The notes beneath the pieces were generated by a model that saw only the letters and a list, made by a program, of their open reading frames with translations, was not told the origin of the DNA and made no database searches. DNA of 64,000 bases from Klebsiella phage phiKp_32, in the sequence record LC768500.1; one strand, 5' to 3'. Of this stretch, positions 30,848 to 49,295 are shown piece by piece. The translations under genes and the position numbers were made by a program. The first letter of the stretch is position 1. Every line of letters starts with the position of its first letter.

Positions 30848-30850
30848 AAC

Positions 30851-30997: not shown

Positions 30998-33136
30998 ATG
31001 ACCACACCTACCCAATTACCGATTCCCAGCAATAACTTGCTGGATTCGAGATTTAACTTTGAAAAGCTCGATCAGATTGTTAATAGCGACGCGAACTATT
31101 ACCTTGATCGATTTGGTAAACAACGACTCACCTCGGCCGGATTGGAAGATTTAGCCAGACGATTATCTGAAGATTATGAATCCACCCTATCTAATCAGGA
31201 TGGGTATAAGAAAATGGGGATGGTGTCTGATTTTACTACTCTCAGAACTATCGCCCCAACAATGGAAGGTCAGCGCATTCTACTCAGGTCGGTCGACGCT
31301 GGTTCGAATAATGGATCGGGAGAGTTTATAGGACATTTAGGGAACGGTGGGGTTGACGACGGGGTTAATGTCGCGGTGGGATCCAACTTCTATTGGGAGA
31401 GACTTTCGACTGATTTTGTTAAATCTTCTTCTATAGGTGATTACGCCCGGATTAACTCCTTTATTTCAGCCGGAAATAAGAAGATCACTGTCGATGCCGA
31501 TCTCAGCGGGTGGCTTAACGTCAAAAGTAACACCACGATAACTTTTAACCCATTGTGTCGGCTGATACCTGATACCGATGACAAAGTAGGTATAAGTATT
31601 AGAGGAGCCGCCCCAACCTCCTATGTTAATCTAGCTACTGATGCATTAGGGATAGATGGCTCAATTACCACCACTAATGACGTTTTTAACATTGGCGATT
31701 GGTTGGAAATTAGATCCAACAAAATTCTTCCCGGCGCGAATTTTTATCAGGTTAAGCAATCTGTTTTACGCAAAGTGCTTCGTAAAACACAAAATGGAAA
31801 TGGAACTTGGACATACCGTCTCCACAGTAGTTTAGGTTATAACTTTAACGTCAGCGACGGTGCTTCCGCTGGGGTTGCGACAGTATTGGAAAATATTGTT
31901 ATCGATGGGGCTAACTTAAATAAAGACAATTTCACCAATATCTTCACCATAGGGATAAACTGTTATTACGTTTATAACCTCACTATAAAAAATATCAACC
32001 TATTCGGAACAAAAGTAAAGGATTCTGCCTCAGACACTCCAGGAAGATCCGGAATAAAACTGTATAATTGCGTTAACGTTAGAATCGATAATGTGAACGC
32101 CTCTTATATAGGGTGGTATGGTGTAGAGGTTATGGGATGCAGTGAAAACGTAGATGTAAATCGTTTATACGGCGTGGATTGTCGACATACCGTTTCCATG
32201 AACTGGATCGAATCTGGTGACCTTTATGGCGGACCTATGTGGGTTTCGGTAAGGAACTCAGCAAGTCACGCTGCAAGATTAAGTGGGTTTGACACTCATG
32301 ATCTAGGAAAGGGGATCGCATTTATTAATTGTCAGAGCTTCGATTCCGGCGACGATGGATTCCAAGTAAGGGCGATGGACACCGTTCTAATCGATTGTCA
32401 TGCTGAAGGATCGACACTTGATGGGTTCGGCGGAGCTACTGGCGCAAAGAACAGCAAATTAGTAAACTGTTCTTTCAACTACAACGTCAGATACGGAATT
32501 AACTTAGGTTATGAAGGTGGTATTGTTATCGACTGTGACGTCGATAATAACGGTTACATGGGGATTTGTACCATCGGCGGACTTATCCAAGGAGGCTCGG
32601 TCACCAATAATTATCCGGCTGCTATCGATATAGGTGCCGGATTTAATGCCGCCCAAACCGATCTCAAAATCGATGGTGTTAGAATGCCCTCTTCGACCGC
32701 CCAGACAAAAATTTTGAGTTTTGCTGGTGACGCGGTAGCCGCTAACAACAAACCTGAGCTGGTCAGAATGGAAAATTGTTACGTTCCTGGTTACGGAAGA
32801 GATTGGGCCCGACTGGTATCGTTCACCGTCCAACCTTTACCTCCGGTGCTTAATAATAATCTACTTACTTCCAGCTTAACCTCCCCTGGAAAAATAAGCG
32901 GGCAAGTCCAATTATCTGCAGGGACGGCCACGGTAACAACCACAGAGGTTTTCTCACAACTTGGTAGCGGCGCAAATGTTTTAAAATACTCATCGCAGAT
33001 TAAGTTGAAACCTATCGCTCGTTCTGCCAATATAGGCGCTCATTATGTTTCAGCAATCAACAACGGGACGTCCTTTGTAATCAATTCAACCAATTCCTCG
33101 GATGGCTCGACCATTTATTGGGAAATAACACTTTAA
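30998..33136 (+). CDS. Tailspike/tail-fibre paralogue 1 (beta-helix, putative depolymerase)
   Basis: Shared N-terminal motif MTTPTQLPIPS...FNFEKLDQIVNSD..YLDRFGKQRLT. Body has repeated xxNC/xxDC beta-helix rungs (VIDCDVDNNG, FINCQSFDSG). Confidence 0.75.
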   Translation: MTTPTQLPIPSNNLLDSRFNFEKLDQIVNSDANYYLDRFGKQRLTSAGLEDLARRLSEDYESTLSNQDGYKKMGMVSDFTTLRTIAPTMEGQRILLRSVDAGSNNGSGEFIGHLGNGGVDDGVNVAVGSNFYWERLSTDFVKSSSIGDYARINSFISAGNKKITVDADLSGWLNVKSNTTITFNPLCRLIPDTDDKVGISIRGAAPTSYVNLATDALGIDGSITTTNDVFNIGDWLEIRSNKILPGANFYQVKQSVLRKVLRKTQNGNGTWTYRLHSSLGYNFNVSDGASAGVATVLENIVIDGANLNKDNFTNIFTIGINCYYVYNLTIKNINLFGTKVKDSASDTPGRSGIKLYNCVNVRIDNVNASYIGWYGVEVMGCSENVDVNRLYGVDCRHTVSMNWIESGDLYGGPMWVSVRNSASHAARLSGFDTHDLGKGIAFINCQSFDSGDDGFQVRAMDTVLIDCHAEGSTLDGFGGATGAKNSKLVNCSFNYNVRYGINLGYEGGIVIDCDVDNNGYMGICTIGGLIQGGSVTNNYPAAIDIGAGFNAAQTDLKIDGVRMPSSTAQTKILSFAGDAVAANNKPELVRMENCYVPGYGRDWARLVSFTVQPLPPVLNNNLLTSSLTSPGKISGQVQLSAGTATVTTTEVFSQLGSGANVLKYSSQIKLKPIARSANIGAHYVSAINNGTSFVINSTNSSDGSTIYWEITL

Positions 33137-33194
33137 CCTTTGCTGGATGGTGATTGGTCGACGCCGGTCTAAAACTAATTTGTTAGGATCATTT

Positions 33195-33228
33195 AAAATC
33201 CAACCGGTCTTAAGACCGGTTGGATTTT
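33195..33228 (+). terminator. Stem-loop terminator between tailspike genes
   Basis: aaaatccaaccggtc-ttaa-gaccggttggatttt. Confidence 0.6.
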
Positions 33229-33270
33229 ATGCTTACCGATATTTCAACCTTCCTGACCCGAGGAATAGCA

Positions 33271-35502
33271 ATGACTTTACCAACGCAAAAACCTATTCCG
33301 AGTTCATCCATAACTGATCAATTATTTAATGCCGAAAAGATAGATCAGGTTGTTAACTCGGATGAACTAGAATATTCCGATCGTTTCGGAAAGAAACGAT
33401 TCACCTTTTCAGGATTATACAACGTTGTGCAGAATTGGATCAGCAGTTTGGGTTCCAGTTCAGGGGCGTCAGCCGTAGGTCTTAGCCAGGGCGGGACGGT
33501 TCAGGCCGGCCTCTATAACGTTGTTAATGTCGAACAATTTGCTTATCTCAATATTTCAGATGATGATTGGGGTCCGGCTTTTAGAGGGGCCAGGGATAAA
33601 GCAATTGAGATATCGGCTCCGGCGGTTACTTTTAAAGGTCACTACAAAATAAAAGTAAGCTCCGGCCCGACCACTCACACCCTGCCTTTCGACGACGGAA
33701 CTTACGATACAAGAAGAACTGGCGAAGTTCTACTTTCTCCAGAAACCTTGAACACAATGCCTGTGGGATTGGAATGGCCTTCCGGACTCTCCCTGAAATC
33801 AGAAGGGATCGGAAACAACTCAATTACTTTTGATTGGGATAATACCACTGTTGGGTTGTCTCAGGGGATTGGGATCTGTATCAGGGTCAGAAACTGGGAC
33901 GGAACTTATCTTGCTAAGGCCGGCTCAGTTAATCGCATGAATAGCGATATAGCCAATGTGGAGTTTGATGGGTTTAGCGTAAATAACGCCTTTATCGGAA
34001 TACTGGCTGATGGTATCGTGGGATCGGTCAGTTGGGGCAGCCTCCAGTTTAAGAAATGTTTCTTACCTATGACTTGGCAGGGCGCCGACAGATGCACGAT
34101 TAAGAAACTGAGATTTACAGATTGTCCGACTGGATTCTCGGTAGGTGGATGGTGGTTGACCCGTAACGACATCTCAGGATCCAATACCGGGCTGGGGGTT
34201 CCGCCTTATGTTGCTGGAACCGACGTGTACTGCATCGGCTGGATGGACTTCGTTAAAATTGAATCTCTGGAGTATTCTAATAGTACTTCGTTTGACAATT
34301 CCCCGTTGTTTGCCGCGGTAGATACTTTCTTCGACACCTATTTCTACAAAAGCGCGAACAGCGCTAGAACTGCTAGTGGTGGTCGATGCACTAATACAGG
34401 TCCTAACCTAACTAGCGCGAGTACGTTAGCGGCAGATTCTCCGTTCTTAGGTATCGCCGGGCGTGCTCACTCACAAATGGGGCGTTACCACCGAAATCAC
34501 ATCTTGAATGAAATTATTTCTCTCAAGACCTGGGGATGTTTCAGGGCATCGGTCCTTACCACGGCTAATGGAAACTCGGAGCTCAATGTCCCGGGGTGCA
34601 TAGTGGGTACCGCGTACATCGAACAGGCCTGTAAGGTCACGGTTGGCGGTGACGCCACGGTGGGGGGAAGTAATGACTTCGTTACATCAGGTAAAGATGT
34701 TTGGAAAGGGACAAAAACTTATTCTAAGTATTATGCTGGTGAAGGATCCGTAATCGTTAAAGATGGATGGTCTGTTAATAGTTTGGGTTTGTTCCCGTCG
34801 GCGCGGACTGTTGCAAGAAACGATAACGGGTATAATAACAGACTAAGAAGGACAATTGTCGACGATGGTACAGGGAAACCGGTCATACTCGAACAGCTTT
34901 CTGAAACGGTCTATGCGACCCCTCCTCAGAAATTTATTCCCAACGCCGTCGGTTCAGTGGACGATAAGTATTACTGGGTTCAGTTTGAGAAGAACGTTTC
35001 TTCAAAGGCCGCTCTTTATTCTGGTGTTCCGACAACGGCTGCGCAAACACCTATAACAGCTCCGGCGATTAAAGTAATAATGGAACGCCTAGGTAACCGA
35101 GTTAAATTAAAAATTAATTTGGATGCGTCAAATTATGCAGCTGGCGGCAGTAATCCGGTGGTAATCGGATTTACTGGGATTTATAAGCCCATTATTGCTA
35201 CGAGTTCCGATTATGCCCTCGGCGCATACGGCCCGGTGAGACCCATAATGGTCAGCACCAAAACATTTACGGTTACTGATTCTACTTCAGTGAGCCGGAC
35301 GTTTAGGATCGAGCCGGTAGCGCATCAAGCTGGGGTGTTCACTGATGGCGCCGGGGTTAATAACTACTACTTTGTTTTGCTCACCCAGCATCATACTTCT
35401 GACACTAATAGACTGTTGTGGTCGGATTTCACCGGTTCGTTATGTCAGATAGAAATAGAATATGATACGAATGACACTATCACTTCATCCAGCGTATTTT
35501 AA
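33271..35502 (+). CDS. Tailspike paralogue 2
   Basis: Start refined to ATG 33271 (MTLPTQKPIPS...FNAEKIDQVVNSD..YSDRFGKKRFT). The tracked TTG extension lies inside the terminator. Confidence 0.75.
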   Translation: MTLPTQKPIPSSSITDQLFNAEKIDQVVNSDELEYSDRFGKKRFTFSGLYNVVQNWISSLGSSSGASAVGLSQGGTVQAGLYNVVNVEQFAYLNISDDDWGPAFRGARDKAIEISAPAVTFKGHYKIKVSSGPTTHTLPFDDGTYDTRRTGEVLLSPETLNTMPVGLEWPSGLSLKSEGIGNNSITFDWDNTTVGLSQGIGICIRVRNWDGTYLAKAGSVNRMNSDIANVEFDGFSVNNAFIGILADGIVGSVSWGSLQFKKCFLPMTWQGADRCTIKKLRFTDCPTGFSVGGWWLTRNDISGSNTGLGVPPYVAGTDVYCIGWMDFVKIESLEYSNSTSFDNSPLFAAVDTFFDTYFYKSANSARTASGGRCTNTGPNLTSASTLAADSPFLGIAGRAHSQMGRYHRNHILNEIISLKTWGCFRASVLTTANGNSELNVPGCIVGTAYIEQACKVTVGGDATVGGSNDFVTSGKDVWKGTKTYSKYYAGEGSVIVKDGWSVNSLGLFPSARTVARNDNGYNNRLRRTIVDDGTGKPVILEQLSETVYATPPQKFIPNAVGSVDDKYYWVQFEKNVSSKAALYSGVPTTAAQTPITAPAIKVIMERLGNRVKLKINLDASNYAAGGSNPVVIGFTGIYKPIIATSSDYALGAYGPVRPIMVSTKTFTVTDSTSVSRTFRIEPVAHQAGVFTDGAGVNNYYFVLLTQHHTSDTNRLLWSDFTGSLCQIEIEYDTNDTITSSSVF

Positions 35503-35517
35503 CATTTAAGGTGTGAT

Positions 35518-37704
35518 ATGACACTCCCAACACAAAACGCCGTTCCTAGTTCAGCTAAGAACGACCAGCTCTTTAATGCTGAGAAGATAGACCAGGTCGT
35601 TAATAGCGACGACCTCCAATATACTGACCGTTTCGGTAAGAAGCGATTTACTTTTACCGGGCTTTACAATATCATCCAGAATTGGATGGGTGGCATTAGT
35701 GGGCTCACCGGAGCAAACAACGTAGGGACGTTATCTGGTCTGTCCGTTCAGTCCGAATTGATTGGAGTACAGTCGGTAGAAGCTTTGCGATCACTTGAAC
35801 CGACTTATACGGATCAGAGAGTAAAGGTTTTGAGATCATCCCCCACCGGGGTTATTTTGAATCACGACGTTTACTATGATTCATCCGATAAAACTTCATC
35901 GGATAACGGATACTCGGTCTTTGTTACTCCCAATGGGAATAGGTGGAAGACCGATATTACCAACGGGTATAACCCATTATTTTTAATAGGGCAGGAAGGG
36001 TACACTGACATATCGTCTGCGATTAACAAAATCGCCTATGATCTGGCGGTACGGTGGGGTAATAATAAAGGCGTAATAGACTTCTGCACCACTATAAGGA
36101 TTCCGGGTAAGTTATTTGGTCAAACACGATATAACGTGACCGGACCTATCCATATCCCGTCGTTCGTTTCCCTAAGCATGGACGTTGACACATACTTTGA
36201 TTACTATACCGTGACTAACACAGACGGGATTATTATCGATAATAGTTATTTCCCGATGCTGTTAGACTCGGCGTACGATCCGTCTACTGCAGCCAGACCA
36301 AGATCAGTCCTATTATGGGAAGCGTCCAGAGAAGTCTTTATTGGCGGGAGACTCATCTTAACCCACCCTATAGGGTCGTCAAGAACATCTAATACCGGAA
36401 TAACGATAGGGAATACCGCTAGCGGATTCATAGATGTCAGAGGGTGTAATTTAAACAATTTTGAATGTTTTGGATTTTATTTCGGGATAAAAATAAATCC
36501 AATTGATGTTTATATCAACTCATTCTCCCGATTCCATTTAGGCCGCAACTATAACGCTGTTGCGGTTTTAGGAGATACAAAGACTAACGCCGGGGAAAAA
36601 TTTAATTTCAGTAACGCCACGATCTCCGATTCAGATTCCGACTTAATTTACATTGAGAATAACGGATTTGAATTGTTCTTTTCTGACGTGTCCTTAGACT
36701 ATCCAACAGGTGATCTAGTAAAAATCACCAAACTCGGTAATGCTTACGTCTCTTTCAATCAGTGCCATATTGAAGGCGTCCAGGGCATGTTAGTGAATGT
36801 AACAGGTTCTACTCTTTTTCCAAAATACGGAAAGAGAATCGTATTTTCGAATTGCATGATTGATATTTCTTCAGGGCAAAGTACCTGGAACAGAACTTGG
36901 TTCTTCTCCTCAACCATCAATACTTTCGTAATGGTGGATAAAACAACCAGGTTCTGGCCATCGACCGCTACGCTCAATTCGAGTAAAACCGCGTATCATT
37001 CTCTTATTAATAACGGTTCTCCAGCAAATAACGCCATTACTTTAGATTACCAATTATCAGACGAAGACCTTATTGACGCATCTACCTTTGTCCTGGGTCA
37101 GTTTAAGCCGGTAGGTGTCAACAAGAGGGTTATAAGTACCAATTCTTATTCCGGTACCGTCGGGAACGCCTACACTGGAGGGAGTTCTTCCACTGATTCT
37201 TGGGGTTGGTATATAGTCAACGGATCGTGGACTTATGCTTCAGCCGATGCATCCGATGGCGATGGTTTGCAGGCGATTTCTTTAACCTCGGACGATGCGA
37301 CTAAAAGCTTTTTCGTAATGTGTTCGCTACCGTGGAACACATTACCTCAAGAGAAATTTAGAGCGCTGGGCGCCATTAAGGTGTATAGCGGGTATACCGG
37401 CTCGGTAAACGTTTCTTGTCTAGTCGAGGCTCATAGTTTGCTGACAATGAACAGTACAGCAGTGGCCGATAATGTGATAGCGACTACTTACAGTCCGGCG
37501 GTAGATGTAGCGGCATTGGCCGCTGCGAATTCCAGGGTCGGTATGTTCCAAGGTTTCTGCACGCAAGCGGCCCAGGTTAACTCATATAGTAATTCTACTC
37601 ACCCGTTACAATTTGTTAGAGTAGGGTTTAAAATAACTGGATTCACTGGAACGATTGAATTGAAGTTACCGACGGTAACCAGTCATAGACTGCTGACAGC
37701 TTAA
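35518..37704 (+). CDS. Tailspike paralogue 3
   Basis: MTLPTQNAVPS...FNAEKIDQVVNSD..YTDRFGKKRFT. Beta-helix-like body. Confidence 0.75.
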   Translation: MTLPTQNAVPSSAKNDQLFNAEKIDQVVNSDDLQYTDRFGKKRFTFTGLYNIIQNWMGGISGLTGANNVGTLSGLSVQSELIGVQSVEALRSLEPTYTDQRVKVLRSSPTGVILNHDVYYDSSDKTSSDNGYSVFVTPNGNRWKTDITNGYNPLFLIGQEGYTDISSAINKIAYDLAVRWGNNKGVIDFCTTIRIPGKLFGQTRYNVTGPIHIPSFVSLSMDVDTYFDYYTVTNTDGIIIDNSYFPMLLDSAYDPSTAARPRSVLLWEASREVFIGGRLILTHPIGSSRTSNTGITIGNTASGFIDVRGCNLNNFECFGFYFGIKINPIDVYINSFSRFHLGRNYNAVAVLGDTKTNAGEKFNFSNATISDSDSDLIYIENNGFELFFSDVSLDYPTGDLVKITKLGNAYVSFNQCHIEGVQGMLVNVTGSTLFPKYGKRIVFSNCMIDISSGQSTWNRTWFFSSTINTFVMVDKTTRFWPSTATLNSSKTAYHSLINNGSPANNAITLDYQLSDEDLIDASTFVLGQFKPVGVNKRVISTNSYSGTVGNAYTGGSSSTDSWGWYIVNGSWTYASADASDGDGLQAISLTSDDATKSFFVMCSLPWNTLPQEKFRALGAIKVYSGYTGSVNVSCLVEAHSLLTMNSTAVADNVIATTYSPAVDVAALAAANSRVGMFQGFCTQAAQVNSYSNSTHPLQFVRVGFKITGFTGTIELKLPTVTSHRLLTA

Positions 37705-37885: not shown

Positions 37886-37896
37886 GGAGTCTTTCA

Positions 37897-40169
37897 ATGA
37901 CACAGCCAACTAAGAATCCTATTCCCAGTGGGAATATATTAGATCAAATTTTTAACGGGGAAAAGATCGACGAGGTGGTGAACAGCGATAATGAGCAATA
38001 CTCAGACCGTTTCGGTATTAAACGTTTCACAGTAACGGGACTTGCGAAGTTAGTTAAAGATCTTATTGCATCTATCTCCGGTGTGGGTGGCGCGGCTAAC
38101 GTAGGATTGGCTCAGGGAGGAAATATCCAACAGGCGATATCTTATATCACGCCTGAAATGTCAGGAATCGTCACCGGTGTCGGAAATGCGGATGACGACA
38201 CGTCAGCAATACAATGGGCTTTTAATCAAAACCTCCCCATCGTCTTTAACCCTAAAAAGGTTTACCACATAAATCCTGGGGTTATCACTCACGTCGGTGC
38301 TGTAGATGTCAAGGCCTCCACCGCTACCTTTGTTTCTGACGGTCCTGCTTTTGAGATCATAGATTGCGACGGTAGTCAATGGGACGGGGGTATTTTTGTT
38401 TCGCAAACTATTCCGTGGACCGTTGTGTACGATGCCGGGTTCAATGTGATAGAGTCCGGAAGATTGGGGTATGGTAGGATGCCTTATCAGGACAGCGGGG
38501 TCGATCCGAATTTTCTATATCAAAAAATAGCCTGCTCTTTAATTTTTAGATCGTCTGATCAGTCTGTGAAAGACGGACTTCTGGTTAAAAATATTAAAGG
38601 GAGTTACGCTAATATAGTCTGCGCTGGCTTTAAAAATACGGTTTTTGACAATTTAGAGATTAGAGGGGGGCTTTAGGGGCAGCTCTTCTTATCCTTAATG
38701 ATTGCGAACAACCGGTTCTTTCTGGTTTTGGGTGGAATGCGGGGGCGGATACAAGTAAAGGTAATAGTTTTAAATGGGGTAGAGGAACTAATCACATTAT
38801 TAAGAATTCGAAGTTTTTCGAATCCAGACAAATGGGTCTGGCCATTATGGGGTCGGATAATATAATATTATCCGATATTTGGACTTATGACAACGCCGAA
38901 TCCGGAATACAGACCGGTCAATATTCGGCAGCCTACCCCCAAGAATCAATAATTTCCAAACACATAACCCAAAAAGGATGTCTGTCGTGGGGCAACTATT
39001 ACGACGGGTTTGACCACGCCACCGTCACGTCTGGTGCCAACGGTCCTTATTTTGAAAAACACCTGAACATGATTGGTAACCAGGCGTTCAATAATAGAGC
39101 TACTGGGATGGTGGTCCAAGGAAACTTTTTACAAATTAATAATAATGAGTTCTCTGTTAACGGAACACACGGGGTTTCTATAAGAGATTCATCGGTTATA
39201 GATGTTTCCGACAATATCATGTACAAGAACGGAGCGATTTCCGGTGGGTATGGGTTGGTAGTTGTCGGGACCGATAGTTTGATTAAAGACAATACCATTA
39301 TTAACGACGAAACACTTGCAAACTCACATATTGTTAATATTTCCGTGGGTAATCAAGCAAGAAAAATTTTCGATGTTAAATTTATTACCTCCCTAATTTC
39401 AGTTCGTTCTTCCCCTACAATGGTTATTGGAAATGGTGTCGATATATCGTACACCAAAACAACTTCTAATGGAGCGGTTACATCCAGCGGTACAAAATCA
39501 AGTTTGGTTAAAGGGGATTTTGTCGCAGGAAAAACTAACAGTGAGTTTTACGATGATGAGTTTGGCGCTGTTCAGGCTTGGAAGCACCCTTATACCGGGT
39601 CGTATTTAAGATTAGGTCCCCTGGATACAGGCAGAACGACTAACGGGCCTTTTACAATAAGTTACAATAGGGGTAAAAACACAACTGCTCCTACTGGATA
39701 TTCTGATAACACAGGGATAGGGTCCACCGAATTAATATTTAATCCCACGTCGTTTATGCTGAATATCTATGCAGCCAATAGCCCGATAACCCCAGTCGTG
39801 GGTTACTCATTTAATACGACTAGTGTAAGACCAACGATTACCAATTTTGCTACTTTAGGAGAAAACAATTACCGGTTCAAAACTCTATATTTAAACTCCT
39901 TCGTTATTTCAGACTCAGGAATAATCCCTGAACAAACAAATATCGTTGATTTGGGTTCGGGCACAAAACGGATAAGAACAGGTTATTTTAACGCCCTCGA
40001 TCTTAGCACTTCGCCTAAAATAGGGAGTGGTGAAGCGGCGGTTATTGTTCAGCCTCCCGCGACTTCAACTTCGAATGGGACGAAGGGGCAGATTGCTTAT
40101 GATACCTCCTATATTTATTTGTGTGTTTCGGCCAATACCTGGATGAGATCACCATTATCATCTTGGTAA
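37897..40169 (+). pseudogene. Tailspike paralogue 4, split into two ORFs (37897..38676 and 38832..40169) by a frameshift at a G6 tract
   Basis: The N-terminal ORF carries the shared anchor motif (MTQPTKNPIPS...FNGEKIDEVVNSD..YSDRFGIKRFT); the second ORF is a beta-helix body with no anchor. A +1 nt slip in GGGGGG (38665-38670) joins the two frames with no stop across 38671-38831. Confidence 0.55.
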
Positions 40170-40179
40170 TAACATAATT

Positions 40180-40212
40180 CGATATCTCGACGGATAATCC
40201 GTCGAGATATCG
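40180..40212 (+). terminator. Stem-loop terminator
   Basis: cgatatctcgacgg-ataat-ccgtcgagatatcg; 14-bp stem. Confidence 0.65.
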
Positions 40213-40287
40213 ATAATTTTATGCTGATCTAAATTCAGTAGACTTGCGCAAGTCTTTTATACTACATTCTTTTAAAGGAGTAACCTC

Positions 40288-42846
40288 GTGGCTACAACTC
40301 CAACTACGGGTGACATCCCCAGCAATGCTGCGGTGGACCTCAAGTTTAACTCGGAACAATTCGACCGAGTAATGAATTCTGACGATCTGACTTATACGGA
40401 TCGTTTTGGTAAAAAACGCATTACAATGAAAGGGGTTCAGGAACTCGCTAATGGCTTCCAGGATACTTTCACCAATCTGTTGGGTTCTCCCGACGGGTTT
40501 AAACTGATCGGCGGAGTAAAGTCTTTTGACACCCTGAGATCAACCCCAGTGAAAACCGAAGGTCAGCGTATTTTCCTCAAGTCTTACTATCAAGATGGAG
40601 TCGACGGCGGTGGGCTCTTCATAGGACACATCGGAACCAAGTTAGATGACTCCGGAACCGTTGCCCAGGGAGTTAACTACTACTGGGAGCGAGTTCTAGG
40701 CGGAATTACACCCACGGTAGAGATGTTCGGTTGCCCTAACAGCACGACTGTTGACGCCGGCCCTTATATCACTTTAGCGCTAGGAGTTGTTGGCGAAGTA
40801 CGTTTACAGGATAGAACGTATTACGTGGACTCGGCGGATATTCCATCGGGCAGCAGGATTGTTTCTTTGGGTGGGGCTGTGATAAGGCCGTTAACCTCCA
40901 ATGCTTCTGCTAAATTTAACCTAGGTTCTGGAAGAGAAAAAATAAGATTTGAGAATATTAAATTCTCTGATCCGGCCGGCCTCGTTACCAGTGAAGACGC
41001 CCTTTTAATAAATGCCGAAAGCATCACCGGATTGACTATTACCAATTGCACCTTTGAAGGTTTAAAGCAGCGTTGTGTTAGAGTTAGAAATGGTTCCGGG
41101 ATAAAAATTACCGATAACAAATTCAGAGGAAGTCTCCCGCATTCTCAATTAAGCGATGAAAGATCCGCTGAGATTTATCTGGTTGACACCCTAGCACACG
41201 TGATCGTCTCTAATAATCAGTTCTATGGGACCGACAGTGGGTTATGGGGGTCTAGAGAAATTGGGGTGTTTGTTCACGCGGTTACGTCAGGGGCGTATTG
41301 GAATGACGTGCATATCGTGTCCAACTACTTCGAAAACTATCGTCGGTTTGGTATAGGCGTGGGAACTCAGGATATAGGAACCCTAGACCAGTTATCAAAA
41401 AATGTATGGATTACCGAAAATACAATTATTAACTCCGGCCAAGAAGGGATCAAAATGAAAGCCGGGTCGATAGTCCATGTTGATAACAACACTGTCGACG
41501 GATTTGAAGGAATAATGGCTGAGGTGCCGGATTCCTTGAACGGCGGAATTTTCATGCAAATTAACGCCGAGTCTACTTGTAACGGCAACCGTATTTATGG
41601 GAAAAATAAGAAGTTATGGTCCGGTGCCGTAACTTCGGCCACTGGTACAACAGTTTCTCTTCCCACAAGTAACTGGACGACATATACGATATCAGCAACC
41701 CAAGGTAGCGGAGTCAGTACCATTGCCGGCAAGTATGTTTATATAAGTTCAGGAACTGGAGTGGGTCAGTGGCGCCGGATTTCTAGCTGGAACAGCACGA
41801 CCAATATGGCTACCGTCAACACCGCATGGACGACCGTTCCGGATACGACCAGCGTGATAGAAGTTTATAGCAACCCCTCCATGGGCATAAAGTATCGCGG
41901 GAATAACACGGGTGGGTCCACCTGGGCCGATAGTAGAACCGCAAGATGCTTCCAAAGCATGAACAACTATGTGGAAGGCTGCGAGGTGGGATTTGGGTTA
42001 TCCGAACCCCTTTTCAATTGCCAATTCGGCTCACTTCATGCCCAGAACTGTAGAGCGATACTAAAAACTTATTCTGGAACGCTGAAAACAACCCGCGGGA
42101 TTCAGTTCTTTGGACTGACGGGCCAGTATCTTGACTACCCGTCCACTGACAACTCATCCGCCATAACCTTTACAGACTGTAGCCAAATCGAAATACATGG
42201 CTTAAAAATTTCTGGAAGTTATTACGATGGGTTGAGGTTATCAAATGTCGACAACTTTAAAATTTTCGGCGGTGTTGTGGAAGGATGCGGGATGGGGGTC
42301 AGCGGTCGTTACGGCCTGGCTATTGCTGGTGGTGTGACTAACTTCGAATCACACGGTGTGACCTACGGCGGGGCCAATGCGGGAGCTGGACAAAGCTACG
42401 CCGCATTTTTCCAGAATACTAATAGCGGAATATCCTTCTTCGGCGGCAGTATGCTGGGTAACGTTGCGGGAGTGTTTAACCCAGGGTCGTCTGGAGCTCT
42501 GTATCCTCCAAGAGATACTGTCTTTAGCGGGGTAGCTGGGGCGGGTCAGATTAAGGGCGTGACTCTCGTAGATAATGCGTCCAAAGTAATTGTCCCCGGT
42601 ACTGATAAAGACACTGTTTTATTTAATACCGCGCTGACCGCGATTAGAACAGTAACTTTCTCCACAGCCTTTGTTGAAGATGGTTGCGTGTACACCATCT
42701 GTAGATCGGCCGCCGCCACGGGGAGTTTTGCTCTCAACGTAGTGACCGCGGTAGGAACACAAGCCCTCGCAGCAGGCTCCTACCTAAGAGTTATTTACTC
42801 GAGTACGCTAGGTTGGATTCCTGTTTCCTACGGTTTATTGAGTTAA
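40288..42846 (+). CDS. Tailspike paralogue 5 (pectate-lyase-like beta-helix)
   Basis: GTG start with RBS aaggag. MATTPTTGDIPS...FNSEQFDRVMNSD..YTDRFGKKRIT. Rungs NCTFEG, ITDNKFRG, ITENTIINSG, VDNNTVDG. Confidence 0.75.
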   Translation: MATTPTTGDIPSNAAVDLKFNSEQFDRVMNSDDLTYTDRFGKKRITMKGVQELANGFQDTFTNLLGSPDGFKLIGGVKSFDTLRSTPVKTEGQRIFLKSYYQDGVDGGGLFIGHIGTKLDDSGTVAQGVNYYWERVLGGITPTVEMFGCPNSTTVDAGPYITLALGVVGEVRLQDRTYYVDSADIPSGSRIVSLGGAVIRPLTSNASAKFNLGSGREKIRFENIKFSDPAGLVTSEDALLINAESITGLTITNCTFEGLKQRCVRVRNGSGIKITDNKFRGSLPHSQLSDERSAEIYLVDTLAHVIVSNNQFYGTDSGLWGSREIGVFVHAVTSGAYWNDVHIVSNYFENYRRFGIGVGTQDIGTLDQLSKNVWITENTIINSGQEGIKMKAGSIVHVDNNTVDGFEGIMAEVPDSLNGGIFMQINAESTCNGNRIYGKNKKLWSGAVTSATGTTVSLPTSNWTTYTISATQGSGVSTIAGKYVYISSGTGVGQWRRISSWNSTTNMATVNTAWTTVPDTTSVIEVYSNPSMGIKYRGNNTGGSTWADSRTARCFQSMNNYVEGCEVGFGLSEPLFNCQFGSLHAQNCRAILKTYSGTLKTTRGIQFFGLTGQYLDYPSTDNSSAITFTDCSQIEIHGLKISGSYYDGLRLSNVDNFKIFGGVVEGCGMGVSGRYGLAIAGGVTNFESHGVTYGGANAGAGQSYAAFFQNTNSGISFFGGSMLGNVAGVFNPGSSGALYPPRDTVFSGVAGAGQIKGVTLVDNASKVIVPGTDKDTVLFNTALTAIRTVTFSTAFVEDGCVYTICRSAAATGSFALNVVTAVGTQALAAGSYLRVIYSSTLGWIPVSYGLLS

Positions 42847-42854
42847 TTAATCCA

Positions 42855-42878
42855 AGAGGGAGATTTAGATCTCCCTCT
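42855..42878 (+). terminator. Stem-loop terminator
   Basis: agagggagat-ttag-atctccctct. Confidence 0.55.
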
Positions 42879-42894
42879 ACCTAAAAGGTGAGTT

Positions 42895-44412
42895 ATGACT
42901 ACCCCAACTAATAACAATATACCGAGTAACTCGGTTCAAGACCGATTATTCAACGCAGAAAAATTTGACGAGTTTATCAACTCTAACAACACGTCTTTTA
43001 CAGACCGTCTTGGGATCAGCAGAACGACGTTAAACGGGATTAGACAAAACGTTTCTAATTGGATGACGTCGTTTTCCACTGAAAACGGGGCGGAGAATGT
43101 CGGATATAGAACCTCTAATGTGGGAGATGTTCTTTCCCGTATGAGGACAATGAGTGACTCGGGTCTTCCGCGTCCTTATCTGGGGTATTCTTCGACTAAC
43201 GACCTTGCTATTTTTACAGAGCAGGGCGCTCTTCGCGATACCGATCTTCTTTTGAATGGTTCGATCACCATAGGTAGGAAATTCCGTAGTATTCGCAGGC
43301 ACGCGACCGCATTGAGTTTACGAGGTGGCCGAGCTTCATCAGGAGATACTGGAGTCTTCAATGCTCAGGTTACGGGTGCGCAGAACGCCAGGGGCGTAGC
43401 TGCATATGGGTTGAATGATGGCGTAACATTATTTGCCGACGCCTTAGCTCCAGCACTGGAAGACTGGGAAACAGTTGATACTGCGTCATATACCGCCACG
43501 ACTGTTACGGTCAGCCCATCGGTGTATTCTTCTTTCCTGACCAACGCCCTAGTTGGTGACGTCATTCAGACACTCCACCCCACTAAATGTTGGGGGTTGA
43601 TTACCAGTATAAACAAAACCACTGGTGTGGTGACAGTTGATGAATGGGCGACAGCTGATGGGGCCACTCTAACACCGACTTCGGGCGTGGGGTTCAACGT
43701 CAACCTGATTAATAAAGTTTGGGCTATCAACGCCAACACTATCATTAACAGCAACTCTGCCGCCGATAATGCCGTAATATGCGAATTTGGGGCGGTGATC
43801 AATAAGTCTGGAGCTTCGCTAAACGGTATCGATATTCCGCTGCTCCAACAAAGCCTCTATGATGGTGTGGCTGGCGTACTGGTTCGCCCTGCGAGCACTT
43901 CAGCTAAAACATGGTTGTACGGTGTCCGTTCAACTAATAACAGAATGAACTTCTATGCGTCCGGCGCCACGTATAATAACTACGTATCGACCGGGTCTGC
44001 GCCAGTCGGAATAAGATTTTCTGGAATGCCCACTTATTCGATGGTGTTCAGCAAATCTTCCGATATGACAGATATGTCGTATGTTAACTCGACGATGATT
44101 TACGATGGATACGGTAGACGTCTGCGCAATATGACTAAGTACAGTGTGCTTACGACGAATACAACGCTGAATGCGCTCATTCCTTGTTATCTGATAAATG
44201 CAGCCGGGATAACTCTGACAATGCCGGCTATAAGTAATATGTCTTCAGGTCATTTTTACGAATTGAAGATACTTAGGGCTGGAACATACTATATCACCGC
44301 CAACGCCCAGGAAGTCAACGTAAGTGGTTACGCTACGTACCCTTTAACTGTCACCACCCCAACTAAAGTAGAGGTTTGGTACGATGGATCGACCTGGATA
44401 ATTGTTCCTTAA
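42895..44412 (+). CDS. Tailspike/tail-fibre paralogue 6
   Basis: MTTPTNNNIPS...FNAEKFDEFINSN..FTDRLGISRTT; the anchor is divergent but recognisable. Confidence 0.7.
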   Translation: MTTPTNNNIPSNSVQDRLFNAEKFDEFINSNNTSFTDRLGISRTTLNGIRQNVSNWMTSFSTENGAENVGYRTSNVGDVLSRMRTMSDSGLPRPYLGYSSTNDLAIFTEQGALRDTDLLLNGSITIGRKFRSIRRHATALSLRGGRASSGDTGVFNAQVTGAQNARGVAAYGLNDGVTLFADALAPALEDWETVDTASYTATTVTVSPSVYSSFLTNALVGDVIQTLHPTKCWGLITSINKTTGVVTVDEWATADGATLTPTSGVGFNVNLINKVWAINANTIINSNSAADNAVICEFGAVINKSGASLNGIDIPLLQQSLYDGVAGVLVRPASTSAKTWLYGVRSTNNRMNFYASGATYNNYVSTGSAPVGIRFSGMPTYSMVFSKSSDMTDMSYVNSTMIYDGYGRRLRNMTKYSVLTTNTTLNALIPCYLINAAGITLTMPAISNMSSGHFYELKILRAGTYYITANAQEVNVSGYATYPLTVTTPTKVEVWYDGSTWIIVP

Positions 44413-44457
44413 CGATTTAACCAATATATGGACCATAAACCCATCTAGGGAAATATC

Positions 44458-44739
44458 ATGTCAGCCGAAAAACAAATTCTTCAACTTCAAGCTCAAATTT
44501 GCCACCTGCGTTTAGAAGGCGCCGAAGCCAAACGATACATCGCCGAGCTCGAATCGATTATCGCTAATAACGAATTGCAGCGTGTATCTATCGAGTTGGG
44601 TCGTATCGAGAAAGCCGAAGGTATGGAGAAAGATACCGCTCGGCAAGAAGAAGACGAGGCGGTGAACAAAGACATCGAAGATATCAAACGCGCAGAACGG
44701 GCTTCAGAAGAAACTCAGGCAGAAGAAGAACAGCAGTAA
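44458..44739 (+). CDS. Acidic coiled-coil protein (93 aa)
   Basis: ORF with the tagggaaatatcATG start context. Heptad-like and E/Q-rich. Confidence 0.5.
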   Translation: MSAEKQILQLQAQICHLRLEGAEAKRYIAELESIIANNELQRVSIELGRIEKAEGMEKDTARQEEDEAVNKDIEDIKRAERASEETQAEEEQQ

Positions 44740-45120
44740 ATCCTTATAGTCAGTAGAATTGGGGGTATTTTTTAACTAACGTACCGTAGAGTTTGCCTCC
44801 AGAGCGTACGCTAAATTGGTTAATGTGAAGGTCCGATCTTTTGATTACACTGCCGATATGGGGTTCATTACTCAAGGCTGTAATTTTACAACCGTTACTA
44901 AGTGGGGTTTCCCTCAATTCGGGTCATTTGGTTTGGGTGAGAGGACTCAGCGAATGGATGCGATGGGCGCCGGCGCGGTAGCGGAATACATCAACACAGT
45001 TAATCAGGGTGTGTCGTTCAAAGCTTTAACAACTTACTCCGGGACATAATTCTAGTTATTTTCTACCCAGCCCTAATGCTATGAAGGTAAGGAGTTAACC
45101 CACACACAGCAGGTACTTAT

Positions 45121-45894
45121 ATGCATAATCGTAGTGTTAAGCGTGCTAACCGCGACGCTCGTCGCGAAGCAAGACGTCAAGATAAGTCCCAAAGTAGCCA
45201 ACTGAAACTGGTGGACAACAATTTCAGTGAAATAAATCTACCTCTTGCAAAAGCTGATCGGAGTAAGATTGAGCCGAAAACCCCAATGCAACAAAAATAT
45301 TGGAATGGGTTACACGCCCACGATGTCGTCATCGGTATTGGTGAAGCGGGTAGCGGTAAAACGTTCCTCCCGACTTGTTACGCTGCAGAACGTCTGCTGG
45401 CTAAAGACGTGGAAAAGATTATCGTTACACGACCAGTCCTACAGGCCGATGAAGATCTGGGTTTTCTCCCCGGGGATGTTAATGAGAAATTCGCACCTTA
45501 CTTCCGACCGGTCTACGATATCTTACTGAAACGCCTGGGTGGTGGAATGCTCAACTATTGCATGAAGCCTGGCGTGGAGAAAGTTGAAGTCGCCCCCTTT
45601 GCTTTTATGAGAGGTCGTACTTTTTCTGACTCAGTGGTGATTCTTGACGAAGCGCAAAACGTTACAGTTATGCAGATGAAAATGTTCATCACTCGTATGG
45701 GTGAGAACACTACGGTAATCATCAACGGCGACCTTACCCAGTGCGATCTTCCTAAAGGAGTTAAATCCGGTCTGGAAGATCTACTGGAGCGCATTGAACG
45801 AGATCCTGAAAATGGATTCCCGATTTATCGTTTCAATGCGGCTGATAGTGTGCGGTCAGATATTTGCTCCAAAGCCCTGAAACTTTATAAGTAA
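45121..45894 (+). CDS. phoH: PhoH-like ATPase
   Basis: Walker A GIGEAGSGKTFL, Walker B VILDEAQN, and PhoH-type spacing. 257 aa. Confidence 0.8.
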   Translation: MHNRSVKRANRDARREARRQDKSQSSQLKLVDNNFSEINLPLAKADRSKIEPKTPMQQKYWNGLHAHDVVIGIGEAGSGKTFLPTCYAAERLLAKDVEKIIVTRPVLQADEDLGFLPGDVNEKFAPYFRPVYDILLKRLGGGMLNYCMKPGVEKVEVAPFAFMRGRTFSDSVVILDEAQNVTVMQMKMFITRMGENTTVIINGDLTQCDLPKGVKSGLEDLLERIERDPENGFPIYRFNAADSVRSDICSKALKLYK

Positions 45895-45900
45895 ATTCTA

Positions 45901-45935
45901 ATAACTCCTACTCCCTTATCGGGAGTAGGAGTTAT
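45901..45935 (+). terminator. Terminator, member of the conserved CTCCTACTCCC family
   Basis: ataactcctactccc-ttatc-gggagtaggagttat (15-bp stem), then tttaa. Confidence 0.75.
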
Positions 45936-45984
45936 TTTAAACGCACCACGGTTATTTATGAACTTTTCATAAGAGACCGTAATC

Positions 45985-46452
45985 ATGAACCTCATGTACG
46001 ATAATTACTACGGAAAAGAAATACTTGGATTGGGTTTAGAGGGTGAAGTCATCACAATGCTAAATTTGGCGATGGCTGATATTAATCACTTCGCTAAGAA
46101 AAGCATTTCTAAAGATATCAACCCCTATCCGTTCAATCTGGAAGATTTTAAGCACAACCGTTTAAACGAACACTACTTCCTCGTTTTTGATGGGAAGAAA
46201 ATAGTGTCGATTCTATCCGTCGTTTACGCTTTAGAGCATCATCTCAAAATAGCTAAAATCTTTAACGTTTATACGTTACCGGAGTATCGCCATAAAGGAC
46301 TTGCTAAACGCAACCTAATCGCCGCTATCGTGTCGGCAAGATCAAATGGGTACATTGTGCAGTTAAACGTTTACAGGTCTAATAAAGCCGCTCAGAAGCT
46401 TTACAAGAGTCTCAAATTTAAACCTGTAGAATACACCATGCAGCTCGGTTAA
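45985..46452 (+). CDS. GNAT-family acetyltransferase
   Basis: LPEYRHKGLAKRNLIAAIV (motif A) and a downstream KLYKSLKF. Paralogue of 27045..27512. Confidence 0.6.
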   Translation: MNLMYDNYYGKEILGLGLEGEVITMLNLAMADINHFAKKSISKDINPYPFNLEDFKHNRLNEHYFLVFDGKKIVSILSVVYALEHHLKIAKIFNVYTLPEYRHKGLAKRNLIAAIVSARSNGYIVQLNVYRSNKAAQKLYKSLKFKPVEYTMQLG

Positions 46453-46560
46453 TTTTAACTACGTTATCGCCTTATTAGTAATGAAGAGAGAATACATTGT
46501 TTTAAACATCGGTTTGAAATAATACGTTCTCATTTTTAACACTAAGCGAAGGTAAATAAA

Positions 46561-47349
46561 ATGAAAGTAACTAAAGAACAATTGATTGAAGCTTTTAACC
46601 AAACAGTGGAAAAAGAAGAAATTGGTTTCAGTGATGGCAAAGAGAGGCTTAAACTGGTCTTAGACGACCCTAAGATGACCCCTCAGGAATTCGAGAATGT
46701 CGTGGGTTGGCTAACCGAGATCTTTTTCTCAGGAACCAATCTGCTGCATATTAATAACCAAACCTCATTAACAGGTGTTCTTTTCTTAAATAACGTTACA
46801 AGTCATTCCAAAGAACTCATTCTAACTAACTCTAACTTGCATAATACTAGTATTTCGGATAAAGGTCGGTGTGAGATTATTCATTCTAAGTTACAAGAAA
46901 GCTCGATTGCCTCTTATGAGGGAATTGGATCAAAGGTGATTGTTAAGTATAGCGACGTTATTGCCTGCCATTTAAACGGTGTTTTTATCGATCACGCTAT
47001 TGTCGTTTGTAGGGAAATTCGCGAAAGTATCACCCTGGAGAATTGCCATATTGCGCACTCAAGACTCTACTTTGGTCCATGTGAGATAAAAAATAAAAAG
47101 TTCTCGTCAGTTATCATCGACGCGGTTAATTTTACCGGTGATTATTTCTGTATTGGGTTAAATGGAGAAAACGCAGTAGGATATGTCAATGGAACTGAAA
47201 AACTAATTGTGGTGGGCGAAAAGAGATACAATCCCGGCAGTTGGGAAGAACAATTCGTTAATAAAGAACAAAATTTATTCATTAAAATGATGAATCAAAA
47301 GAAATTAGAAATGATGAATATGTTCTTCGATAGTTTGGCGTTTAAATAA
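46561..47349 (+). CDS. Hypothetical beta-repeat protein (262 aa)
   Basis: ORF with RBS gaagg. Has a periodic hydrophobic/Cys pattern. Confidence 0.5.
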   Translation: MKVTKEQLIEAFNQTVEKEEIGFSDGKERLKLVLDDPKMTPQEFENVVGWLTEIFFSGTNLLHINNQTSLTGVLFLNNVTSHSKELILTNSNLHNTSISDKGRCEIIHSKLQESSIASYEGIGSKVIVKYSDVIACHLNGVFIDHAIVVCREIRESITLENCHIAHSRLYFGPCEIKNKKFSSVIIDAVNFTGDYFCIGLNGENAVGYVNGTEKLIVVGEKRYNPGSWEEQFVNKEQNLFIKMMNQKKLEMMNMFFDSLAFK

Positions 47350-47355
47350 TAAAGT

Positions 47356-47389
47356 TTTACTCTACCTCGGTTTCCCGAGGTAGAGTAAA
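47356..47389. terminator. Bidirectional terminator between convergent genes
   Basis: tttactctacctcgg-tttc-ccgaggtagagtaaa; 15-bp stem. Confidence 0.7.
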
Positions 47390-47486
47390 GAGAGCCATCT
47401 GGATTATTAATGTCTAAGGAATATAACCGAGGAACCCAGCAAAAGAAACACCCAAAAATCAGCTAGTGAGTGTTCTATCGTTCTTT

Positions 47487-49295
47487 TTACGCTAATACCC
47501 AGCAAGCTCTAGATGAGTTCCAAATGAATTCATAGGTTCCCGCAGAAGTTAAAGCGACGCTAGTTAACGACCCACCTCCAGGGCCGTAAATTGTATCGGT
47601 CCCGTTAGGGGTTACCGTGTACGTCCCACCTGATAGGATTTTCTTAAATCTTATCATAAACCCTGAACTCAACCCAGTCCCAGACGGAAGGTTGAAAGAT
47701 GAGGCGGCGGAACTCAAACAGTAATAAACGTTACTCAATCCGGTCGTAGGGAAAGTATAACCGGTATTAATTTCAGTATAAGTAACGGATACTTGAGATA
47801 ATCCAGCTAATGAGACTTTACCTGCCGCGAACGTGATTAACTGGGTAGGCGCCGCAGTTCCTGAACCACCCCAGATTCCAGAAGGAGAGAAACTCAATCT
47901 TGGGTAAGCCTCACCCGTCACTTTTAACGAATACATTGCTGTAGCCGTGGACGTAGCTCCCTGTTGAATAGGCTGAACGGCATCCATGACTTTTATGTTA
48001 GCGAATTCGTAGTTTCCTCTGTCAGGGGAATTGGTAATCGCCACCGCGGCGGCGTCAGATGGGGACCCGGTAGCGACGTTATTGGTGAAGTAATCATTAA
48101 CGCCATTCCACATTGTCGAAGAACCTGACGCGAAAGCCATGCAATAAGCTACTCGTGTGCTAGACGTGCCAGTGTTGTAATTGAAATGGGAGTTGGAGGT
48201 AATAATCTTTCTCACGTTACCTGTGAACTTCAGGTTGGCGTAACCATTAGTGGCGATCTCCGCAGCTGCAGACCCCCATCCGTTGGCAAAGAACGTGTTG
48301 GCGATTTGTTCGTGGATTTCAGTACCGCCAGGAGTGTTAAATAAAATCCCTGACTTAGCGTTAGAGTTAACGTGGTTCCTCACCATGCTCGTTACGGTAG
48401 CATTAGGTCCGAATACCACGCCGTTTCCGTTAGACTCGTAAGATTCACTGAGTACCATACGGAAACTTGCACAGTTAGCGTAAATATTATCCGATCCACT
48501 ACGCCCGATAGAAGAAGATAACAATTGCCAATCCGCGCCATTGGCGATATACAAGCAGGTGTTGTAACAGTATAGTATCGAAGAGTATTGCAGATACCCC
48601 ATGTTACGGTTTTTCCCAGCGTAAACGCCGTACCCAGAGAAATTACCAATACCTGAGTTTATCAACTGTACACCGATTGAATAAACACTGGCATCGGCTA
48701 GATATATCGCCGTGAGAGGTCCGCTCGTCGGCGCGTTTAGAGCATAAACCGACCCTGGGTTAGACCAATCCCCCTCAATCCTAATATTTTCAAAAGTAGG
48801 GGAAGCCGACCGGGAACAGTAGAACATGTTACCGGTCGTCCCTGGTTTGGCGGTAATACGAGCTGAACTACGTTTACCAACACCTTCAAAATAAACGTTA
48901 CTGGAAATATTTAAATTCCCAATTATGTAGTTCTTACCCGCGCTAAGTTTTATTCTAGCTGTAGAGGAAGCGTTAATAGCGGCCTGCATGGCTGCTGTAT
49001 CATCAGTTACACCATCGCCCTTTGCCCCATAAGCTTCTGGAACAACGTAGGTCAAGTAATCCTGAACGTGTCCCCCTTGGCTAACGCCGATGTTACCAGC
49101 GCCAGTATTCCCAGTTAGGTTAGAGAAGAAGGTTTGGATAGAGGTTACGATCCCCTTCATTGTGAAACGCTTGGCTCCAAAACGATCGTCGTATGTCTCG
49201 TTATCACTATTAACGATCTCGTCGAGTTTCTCGGTGTTAAACCTCACGTCTATTGCAGTACTACTGGGTATATTATTTTGTGTTGGAGTTGTCAT
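47487..49295 (-). CDS. Tailspike paralogue 7 (minus strand)
   Basis: MTTPTQNNIPS...FNTEKLDEIVNSD..YDDRFGAKRFT anchor. Body rungs NHVNSNAKSG, FTGNVRKI. RBS ggaggga. Confidence 0.75.
   Translation of the reverse strand: MTTPTQNNIPSSTAIDVRFNTEKLDEIVNSDNETYDDRFGAKRFTMKGIVTSIQTFFSNLTGNTGAGNIGVSQGGHVQDYLTYVVPEAYGAKGDGVTDDTAAMQAAINASSTARIKLSAGKNYIIGNLNISSNVYFEGVGKRSSARITAKPGTTGNMFYCSRSASPTFENIRIEGDWSNPGSVYALNAPTSGPLTAIYLADASVYSIGVQLINSGIGNFSGYGVYAGKNRNMGYLQYSSILYCYNTCLYIANGADWQLLSSSIGRSGSDNIYANCASFRMVLSESYESNGNGVVFGPNATVTSMVRNHVNSNAKSGILFNTPGGTEIHEQIANTFFANGWGSAAAEIATNGYANLKFTGNVRKIITSNSHFNYNTGTSSTRVAYCMAFASGSSTMWNGVNDYFTNNVATGSPSDAAAVAITNSPDRGNYEFANIKVMDAVQPIQQGATSTATAMYSLKVTGEAYPRLSFSPSGIWGGSGTAAPTQLITFAAGKVSLAGLSQVSVTYTEINTGYTFPTTGLSNVYYCLSSAASSFNLPSGTGLSSGFMIRFKKILSGGTYTVTPNGTDTIYGPGGGSLTSVALTSAGTYEFIWNSSRACWVLA

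Follow-up and report, generated by a model that had tools for sequence, protein, structure and literature searches.

Seven genes at positions 30998-49295 of a 64,000-nucleotide (nt) stretch of Klebsiella phage phiKp_32 (sequence record LC768500.1; hereafter the window) probably constitute an array of receptor-binding proteins (RBPs), in which tailspike anchors of the Sf11 type, falling into six classes, are joined to exchangeable, mostly beta-helix depolymerase bodies, with display of several spikes on one virion predicted. In the mechanism that we favour, each of these genes (g1 to g7) would yield a homotrimeric tailspike of two parts, i.e., a helix-hairpin-helix anchor of ~55 amino acids (aa) and a variable body, which would mostly be a right-handed beta-helix polysaccharide depolymerase. 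The three anchor copies of a trimer would, by homology, bundle round an acidic adaptor helix of a tail or baseplate protein. The anchor classes keep their order across phages under purifying selection and without homogenisation, and bodies are replaced through recombination between phages at junctions right behind the anchor. Each class would address its own docking site, and a single virion could then present as many as six or seven different spikes together and attack several capsule types.

Seven genes share an N-terminal module homologous to the Sf11 tailspike anchor

A preliminary description of this DNA had proposed that seven genes share an N-terminal module, and this was borne out by open reading frames (ORFs), alignment, BLASTP and a hidden Markov model (HMM). 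Seven ORFs open with the same module, with starts at 30998, 33271, 35518, 37897, 40288 and 42895 on the plus strand and at 49295 on the minus strand, each of them preceded by a Shine-Dalgarno-like sequence. The start of g5 at 40288 is a GTG; g2 begins with the ATG at 33271, in place of a TTG further upstream that the ORF listing gives. Alignment of the N-termini was significant, with 19 invariant columns across the seven proteins over the first 48 residues of the module. Pairwise BLASTP between the paralogues gave E values of 1e-10 to 1e-31, limited to the first 51-136 aa. When the six-frame translation of the whole window was searched with the module HMM, exactly seven matches were obtained (E 1e-29 to 1e-33) and no eighth copy or remnant was found, the next best match having an E value of 2.6. 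The HMM and BLASTP results show that the repeat is real and far beyond chance.

The module begins at residue 1-2 in all seven proteins and is ~55-60 aa long, as judged from the HMM span (1-56) and from recombination breakpoints at aa 40-60, rather than the ~45 aa originally estimated. Behind the anchor, a second shared stretch extends to aa ~136 in g1/g5, to ~119 in g2/g3 and to ~110 in g4/g7, past which BLASTP found no similarity among the bodies at E 1e-3. The bodies had been described as unrelated; just behind the anchor the members of these three pairs are alike. No Pfam family covers the module, which is covered by PHROGs 3257, 13362 and 17635.

That the shared module is a virion anchor is supported by homology. 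A profile of the seven N-termini matched residues 1-60 of gp13, the tailspike of the Shigella siphophage Sf11, in the Protein Data Bank (PDB; 9occ_G) at E 2e-22, and individual N-termini matched the same chain as single sequences at E 1e-8 to 1e-11. In the cryo-electron microscopy structure of Sf11 (9OCC), the spike is modelled in the high-resolution tail map for gp13 residues 4-59 alone (PMC12724387). There, the three N-terminal helices of the gp13 trimer form a bundle together with one adaptor helix, which is contributed by the distal tail protein gp17; Lys19 of gp13 makes salt bridges to Glu136, Glu147 and Glu152 of gp17, and Arg16 has a longer-range contact with Glu129 (PMC12724387). Given this homology to a structurally defined anchor, the anchor reading of the module is well supported. 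An AlphaFold2 (AF2) monomer model of g6, for which the alignment was deep over the anchor only, has in the anchor a helix at 14-29, a hairpin at 34-44 and a helix at 46-60, with a predicted local distance difference test score (pLDDT) of 64-81.

A profile search of 1.84 billion representative proteins identified 1,754 clusters with the module at E <= 1e-3, and among the 150 best hits listed it started within the first five residues in 148, the other two starting at residues 11 and 13. In the phage records, about 224 T1-like siphophages of ~46-48 kb (from Salmonella, Klebsiella, Escherichia and Shigella) have a single copy of the module each, and Miami-like jumbo phages have four to nine. Sf11 gp13 and its siphophage counterparts have a homologous module of ~55-60 aa at the extreme N-terminus, followed, as here, by an exchangeable enzymatic body. 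Whereas the Sf11-type siphophages have genomes of ~46 kb and a single copy docked on the distal tail protein, the window phage belongs to a contractile-tailed jumbo group of ~250 kb with four to nine copies, six diverged classes and no gp17-like adaptor detected.

Anchor classes follow locus position in related jumbo phages

Relatives were sought by megablast of window positions 30000-50000 against 50,697 phage records. The matches were jumbo Klebsiella phages of ~252-257 kb, i.e., KPN8 (94% identity where alignable), YC1, Miami (genus Miamivirus), Raoultella phage VB_ZK_P1 (ZK_P1) and BUCTxx100, with 14-45% of the 20-kb query alignable per relative and no more than 20-45% of the locus in common with any of them. 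The flanks of the locus are conserved among these phages and the spike region is mosaic. By sequence comparison, the window phage is a Miami/KPN8/YC1-like jumbo Klebsiella myophage. BUCTxx100 (OR529409.1) was deposited with Stenotrophomonas maltophilia as host; it is 92% identical in DNA to these Klebsiella phages where alignable and has the same seven-slot spike locus, and its listed host may deserve checking.

The same HMM detected nine module-bearing genes in KPN8, seven each in YC1, BUCTxx100 and ZK_P1 (one of the ZK_P1 genes being a 118-aa stump) and four in Miami. When the 47-aa modules of the six phage genomes were clustered at 70% identity, six classes resulted that tracked locus position rather than phage: class A (g1), class B (g2 and g3), class D (g4), class E (g5), class F (g6) and class G (g7, on the minus strand). 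The class order is kept in eight genomes or contigs (the six phage genomes and two metagenome contigs), with one to two copies per class owing to tandem duplicates inside classes, such as g2/g3 here and three such pairs in KPN8. Amino-acid identity averaged 86% (minimum 68%) within a class across genomes, and 54% (maximum 70%) between classes within one genome. Synonymous codon differences within classes far exceed non-synonymous ones; in class E they number 73 versus 0, the g5 anchor being amino-acid-identical in all six phages. These patterns imply that the anchor paralogues arose long ago, are each under constraint and have not been homogenised. The preliminary notion of one conserved anchor needs to be changed, as the 86% versus 54% identities divide the anchors into six position-specific classes.

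Three positions of the module (17, 18 and 26) are fixed inside every class and differ among classes. Position 18, which aligns with Sf11 Lys19, is R, L, I, K, L and R in classes A, B, D, E, F and G, respectively. Two chimeric modules were found: one in Miami gp092 (L002 33059-34705), which is A then B, and one in YC1 (L003 8350-10530), which is D then B. Since both junctions lie near aa 32, class identity resides in helix 1. At the sequence level, these two chimeras indicate rare or occasional inter-class recombination inside the module. The six position-specific anchor classes, the breakpoints right behind the module and the class-diagnostic Lys19-equivalent are new here.

It is very improbable that some of the seven proteins are not tailspikes but soluble depolymerases, set free at lysis and not part of the virion. 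Soluble second depolymerases have indeed been proposed for some Klebsiella siphophages (PMC6872550), but that proposal concerned proteins without any anchor or conserved peptide, whereas all seven proteins here carry the conserved anchor under purifying selection.

Most spike bodies resemble polysaccharide depolymerases

In keeping with the earlier suggestion of enzymatic spikes, most bodies were depolymerase-like by Pfam, PDB and Foldseek matches. The accompanying claim that the bodies are beta-helices is supported by Pfam in g1, g4, g5 and g7 and by AF2 with Foldseek in g3; g2 matched a KN1 depolymerase over part of its length only.

In the product of g1 (30998..33136, plus strand, 712 aa), a class-A anchor (aa 1-~55) and a second module, which is shared with g5 and reaches aa ~136, precede a beta-helix body of the K1-lyase family. 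Its Pfam matches were K1-lyase_Rider (PF24149, 7e-35), K1-lyase_C (PF24146, 1e-21) and Beta_helix (PF13229, 4.5e-6), and its PDB matches were 9k4a, a K1 depolymerase (9e-113), and 7w1c, a K1 lyase (3e-91). The body is homologous to the K1 depolymerase S2-4 of PhiK64-1, to which g1 is ~40% identical. Like the K1 lyases 7W1C (NTUH-K2044-K1-1) and 9K4A (PhiK64-1 S2-4), g1 has Rider, beta-helix and K1-lyase C-terminal domains over the full body, but it is only ~36-40% identical to these enzymes, which have another N-terminal anchor. As judged by this domain composition (Rider, beta-helix and C-terminal domain), g1 is a member of the K1-capsule lyase family.

The two class-B genes lie in tandem. 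In g2 (33271..35502, plus strand, 743 aa from the ATG), the body is partly related to the KN1-specific capsule depolymerase (PDB 9m4d/9m4c, 1e-21, aa 232-428). This protein also matched the tail protein family phrog_22560 (2e-61) and had no Pfam match. The body of g3 (35518..37704, plus strand, 728 aa) is that of a beta-helix tailspike, and its AF2 model had a pLDDT of 77 overall and ~90 over aa 120-430. Foldseek comparison of this model with the PDB gave K2-2 TSP (8iq5) as best match (5e-16), together with CBA120 TSP4/TSP2, whose catalytic domains the model resembles, Kp7 gp52 and Depo32. A precomputed assignment to PF27114 (Phage_tail_beta) exists for g3, which had no match in our Pfam search of proteins.

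In g5 (40288..42846, plus strand, 852 aa), the class-E anchor with its GTG start is followed by a second module, which reaches aa ~135, and then by a body of the beta-helix type, with matches to Pfam Beta_helix (1.5e-10) and, on aa 45-154, to Depo32 in the PDB (4e-17). The minus-strand gene g7 (47487..49295, 602 aa) joins a class-G anchor to a pectate-lyase-like beta-helix body that matched Pfam Pect-lyase_RHGA_epim (1.7e-7), Phi92 gp150 in the PDB (1.6e-9) and the tail protein family phrog_17312 (4e-31). In g6 (42895..44412, plus strand, 505 aa), a class-F anchor precedes an orphan body, whose only full-length relatives are P0001 (92% identical; one in 5.8 billion clusters) and a YC1 gene (100%). 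Because the body has essentially no homologues, its AF2 model is unusable (pLDDT 33.7 overall, ~28 over the body). A C-terminal domain common to the bodies, suspected by eye, was dropped, as it had no Pfam support at E <= 1.

Comparison with relatives supports exchange of bodies behind the anchor

Several bodies recur in individual relatives. The bodies of g1 and g2 are 99% and 97.5% identical to those of KPN8 genes, that of g5 is 91% identical to its counterpart in ZK_P1 and that of g6 is 100% identical to the YC1 body; the bodies of g3, g4 and g7 had no counterpart in the five relatives. Breakpoints, defined as the point, in nt from the gene start, at which DNA homology to each relative ends, were located at nt 122-144 in g1, 161-171 in g3, 139-146 in g4, 171-179 in g6 and 119-153 in g7, and in g5 behind the second module, at nt 386-404. 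In Klebsiella prophages, tail proteins that start with different N-terminal domains (the P22-type head-binding domain PF09008 and PF18668) have bodies 65-70% identical to that of g3. On the sequence evidence, these data support the view that bodies are exchanged between phages at a given slot, with the junction right behind the anchor.

The shared 5' module had been put forward as a substrate for cassette exchange between the seven genes themselves. The exchange documented here is between phages at the same slot. Support for exchange between paralogues in one genome is poor, the DNA identity of modules from different classes being 56% on average and 70% at most. Among the modules, DNA repeats register only between the 5' ends of g2, g3 and g4, at 72% and 62%.

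Docking of the spikes

The seven proteins had also been described as a branched complex. At E <= 0.01, none of them matched a T4gp10-like or TSP1/Gp66-type branching domain in Pfam (e.g., there was no PF18668), the Pfam coverage of such domains being incomplete. That all seven have the same simple anchor suggests parallel docking rather than branching. Jumbo Klebsiella phages with multiple RBPs are known, PhiK64-1 having 11, RaK2 about 10 and phiKp24 14, and have been modelled as branched assemblies, in which one anchor domain is combined with T4gp10-like domains and with short conserved peptides of several kinds (PMC6872550, PMC13385381). PhiK64-1, RaK2 (Alcyoneusvirus) and phiKp24 resemble the window phage in being jumbo myophages with a cluster of many depolymerase-type RBPs, presumably directed at many capsule types. 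They differ from it in these branched models, as opposed to the single simple anchor type without a Pfam branching domain seen here. Several different beta-helix tailspikes on one virion are likewise found in CBA120 and the Ackermannviridae (TSP1-4) and in G7C (gp63.1/gp66); those systems use XD/T4gp10-like domains and spike-on-spike docking, whereas none of our seven proteins has a Pfam match to such domains.

Obvious candidates, as yet unproven, for the proteins that bear the docking sites are three large paralogous virion proteins (phrog_3573), encoded on the plus strand at 10-2400 (partial, 796+ aa), 2393-5959 (1188 aa) and 6005-9220 (1071 aa) and adjoined by a baseplate assembly gene on the minus strand (9268-10254). 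Together with the baseplate protein (window 10-10254), these virion proteins share 95-99% identity, with zero gaps, with their counterparts in Miami (gp056-058 for the three virion proteins), so that no docking-site count correlates with class repertoire. The adaptor search that the preliminary description had called for thus gave neither a gp17-like adaptor in the window by homology nor a comparative signal against Miami. In many siphophages that also carry the module, the helix-bearing part of gp17 is 85-97% conserved. The adaptor of the window phage may be encoded beyond the window, or may have no sequence relationship to gp17.

Several observations weigh against an array of anchor classes with multi-spike display. 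No homologue of Sf11 gp17 was found in the six-frame translation of the window with either the full-length protein or residues 100-180 (best E 0.26). Among the matches listed (40 of 312) from a tblastn search of the 50,697 phage records with gp17 residues 95-247, there was no jumbo phage, only small siphophages and a few mid-size phages. Miami is without classes B and D, yet its structural proteins are collinear with those of the window. The conservation of the classes could be simple vertical inheritance of 5' ends, and tandem duplicates within a class (g2/g3 and the three pairs in KPN8) would share or compete for a site. Finally, g6 had no Pfam, PHROG or PDB matches beyond the anchor.

How the classes would be used is a matter of more guarded inference. 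We tentatively suggest an address code, in which helix 1 of each class, including its Lys19-equivalent, would recognise its own baseplate adaptor helix, so that a siphophage anchor would have given rise to six slots with parallel docking, each of them reloadable with any body through recombination behind the anchor. A rather unlikely alternative is that there is one generic docking site, for which all classes compete; virions would then carry a stochastic mix of spikes, and the classes would be historical, reflecting old duplications and vertical inheritance, without serving as addresses. Such competition is consistent with the same 19 invariant residues in all classes, with the siphophages that manage on one adaptor helix type, with the likeness of the candidate structural proteins between six-class phages and the four-class Miami, with the variation from one to two copies per class and with the existence of two chimeric modules. 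It is harder to reconcile with the lack of concerted evolution despite the tandem layout (54% identity between versus 86% within classes), with a class order conserved in eight genomes or contigs, with a class-diagnostic Lys19-equivalent that switches between basic and hydrophobic residues and with a class E that has no non-synonymous changes.

Frameshift of g4 at a homopolymer run

The class-D gene g4 (37897..40169, plus strand), with a beta-helix body, is frameshifted, and is read as a 259-aa ORF (37897-38676) followed by a 445-aa ORF (38832-40169). The frameshift site is a homopolymer run of six G (G6) at 38665-38670 on the plus strand, and adding one G to this run yields a single uninterrupted ORF of 757 aa. 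The repaired protein matched Pfam Beta_helix (2e-8) and aligned from end to end, at 99% identity, with P0013, a homologue that is intact at 757 aa. As sequenced, the genome therefore has six intact spikes and one frameshifted, which qualifies the original count of seven spike genes as well as the size range of 505 to 852 aa given for them, the gene at 37897 encoding 259 aa as written.

Intact homologues of g4 were found via protein search, an exact-pattern scan of IMG/VR for the flanks of the G-run having returned 0 matches. P0013 is encoded on two independent metagenome contigs (L008, from JGI 3300045375, and L009, from Logan SRR23702487), which have 97.3% DNA identity to the window, seven G (G7) at the run and an intact gene. 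Between these contigs and the window, the difference in tract length, G6 (broken) versus G7 (intact), toggles the reading frame. We propose that g4 would have been switched off in the window genome through a G7-to-G6 deletion.

It is doubtful, in our view, that the frameshift is a homopolymer sequencing or assembly error and that all seven spike genes of the phage are in truth intact. The break amounts to one base in a G-run, where such errors classically arise, the repaired 757-aa ORF is perfect and 99% identical to P0013, and g4 has no more disabling mutations downstream. Against an error, the independently built Logan assembly of run DRR406566 also has G6: its 12.7-kb contig (L007) reproduces window positions 33200-45928 at 100% identity, the 259- and 445-aa calls included, with the caveat that DRR406566 may be the same read set as that behind the window genome.

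Still less probable is a functional switch at the G-run, through slipped-strand variation between G6 and G7 or through a -1 ribosomal slip on GGG GGG that would give some full-length protein. Tract length does differ between otherwise 97%-identical genomes, and by sequence reasoning a -1 shift at the second GGG codon would restore exactly the intact frame. However, the heptamer departs from the canonical slippery-site pattern X XXY YYZ, and only two tract states were seen, one per lineage. Nor did RNA folding downstream of the run reveal a stable, stimulatory structure, this region being less structured than its shuffles (z = +2.08), and programmed frameshifting was accordingly dropped as a candidate. 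The G7-to-G6 deletion remains our preferred explanation for the state of g4.

Genes and landmarks around the locus

A small plus-strand ORF (44458..44739) lies ~45 nt downstream of g6 and encodes an acidic (pI 4.5), helical protein of 93 aa without a family match. It is present in all three genomes with a g6-type body (the window, YC1 and, at 9564-9845, Logan contig L010), and had no blastn match in the four relatives without such a body. From this distribution, it may be a cassette-specific accessory, chaperone or assembly factor. In the gap between g6 and phoH there is also a spike-gene relic of 39 codons without the module (44786..44902, plus strand), which matched, by blastx, the C-terminal end of the truncated 118-aa module-bearing ORF of ZK_P1 (L004 17008-17370; 77%, E 1e-16). 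From this match, the relic and the ZK_P1 stump both look like what is left of an additional class-F spike gene that was lost or has decayed. Directly behind its class-A gene gp092, Miami has gp093 (L002 34712-36391), which encodes a RaK2_00525-like protein of 559 aa without the anchor module; gp092/gp093 may be a two-gene spike unit, or the spike may be attached another way.

Between g6 and the oppositely oriented g7 are genes for PhoH, a GNAT acetyltransferase and a 262-aa protein. A terminator-like hairpin with a 15-bp stem (30851..30884) lies just upstream of g1, at the boundary of the locus, and another 15-bp hairpin (47356..47389) lies at the convergent junction of the 262-aa gene and the 3' end of g7; Miami has a terminator annotated at the equivalent place in both cases. 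Two further hairpins, a palindromic one at 33200-33223, which coincides with the end of the Logan contig L007, and one with a perfect 16-bp stem at 40179..40213 between g4 and g5, may be terminators or recombination landmarks between cassettes. Two TnpB/OrfB-like paralogues of 378 aa each, both on the plus strand (23897-25033 and 51036-52172), are 63% identical over their full length. The second directly follows a Rossmann-fold gene, where Miami has no such gene, and from their sequences the two look like mobile insertions in the phage genome.

Implications for host range and spike design

A literature search found nothing specific on the spikes or host range of the Miami group. Jumbo phages with multiple depolymerases, and their host-range strategy, are already known; what is new is the uniform Sf11-type anchor, the mapped junctions and a member disabled at a homopolymer run. 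From the sequence of the locus, a broad host range is a reasonable inference. The locus ties a siphophage tailspike anchor to a jumbo myophage and is a clear case of module sharing across phage morphotypes. Since capsule type restricts the hosts that a phage can infect, Klebsiella phages with multiple depolymerases are sought for therapy. The very regular build of these spikes, in which a short anchor of recently defined structure leads straight into an exchangeable body and natural junctions are mapped to a few codons, offers a concrete recipe, i.e., joining the first ~55 aa of an anchor class of choice to a new body. If the classes do address distinct sites, the design would differ from the branched, spike-on-spike build of other phages with multiple depolymerases, and one phage chassis could be loaded with six chosen specificities that do not compete.

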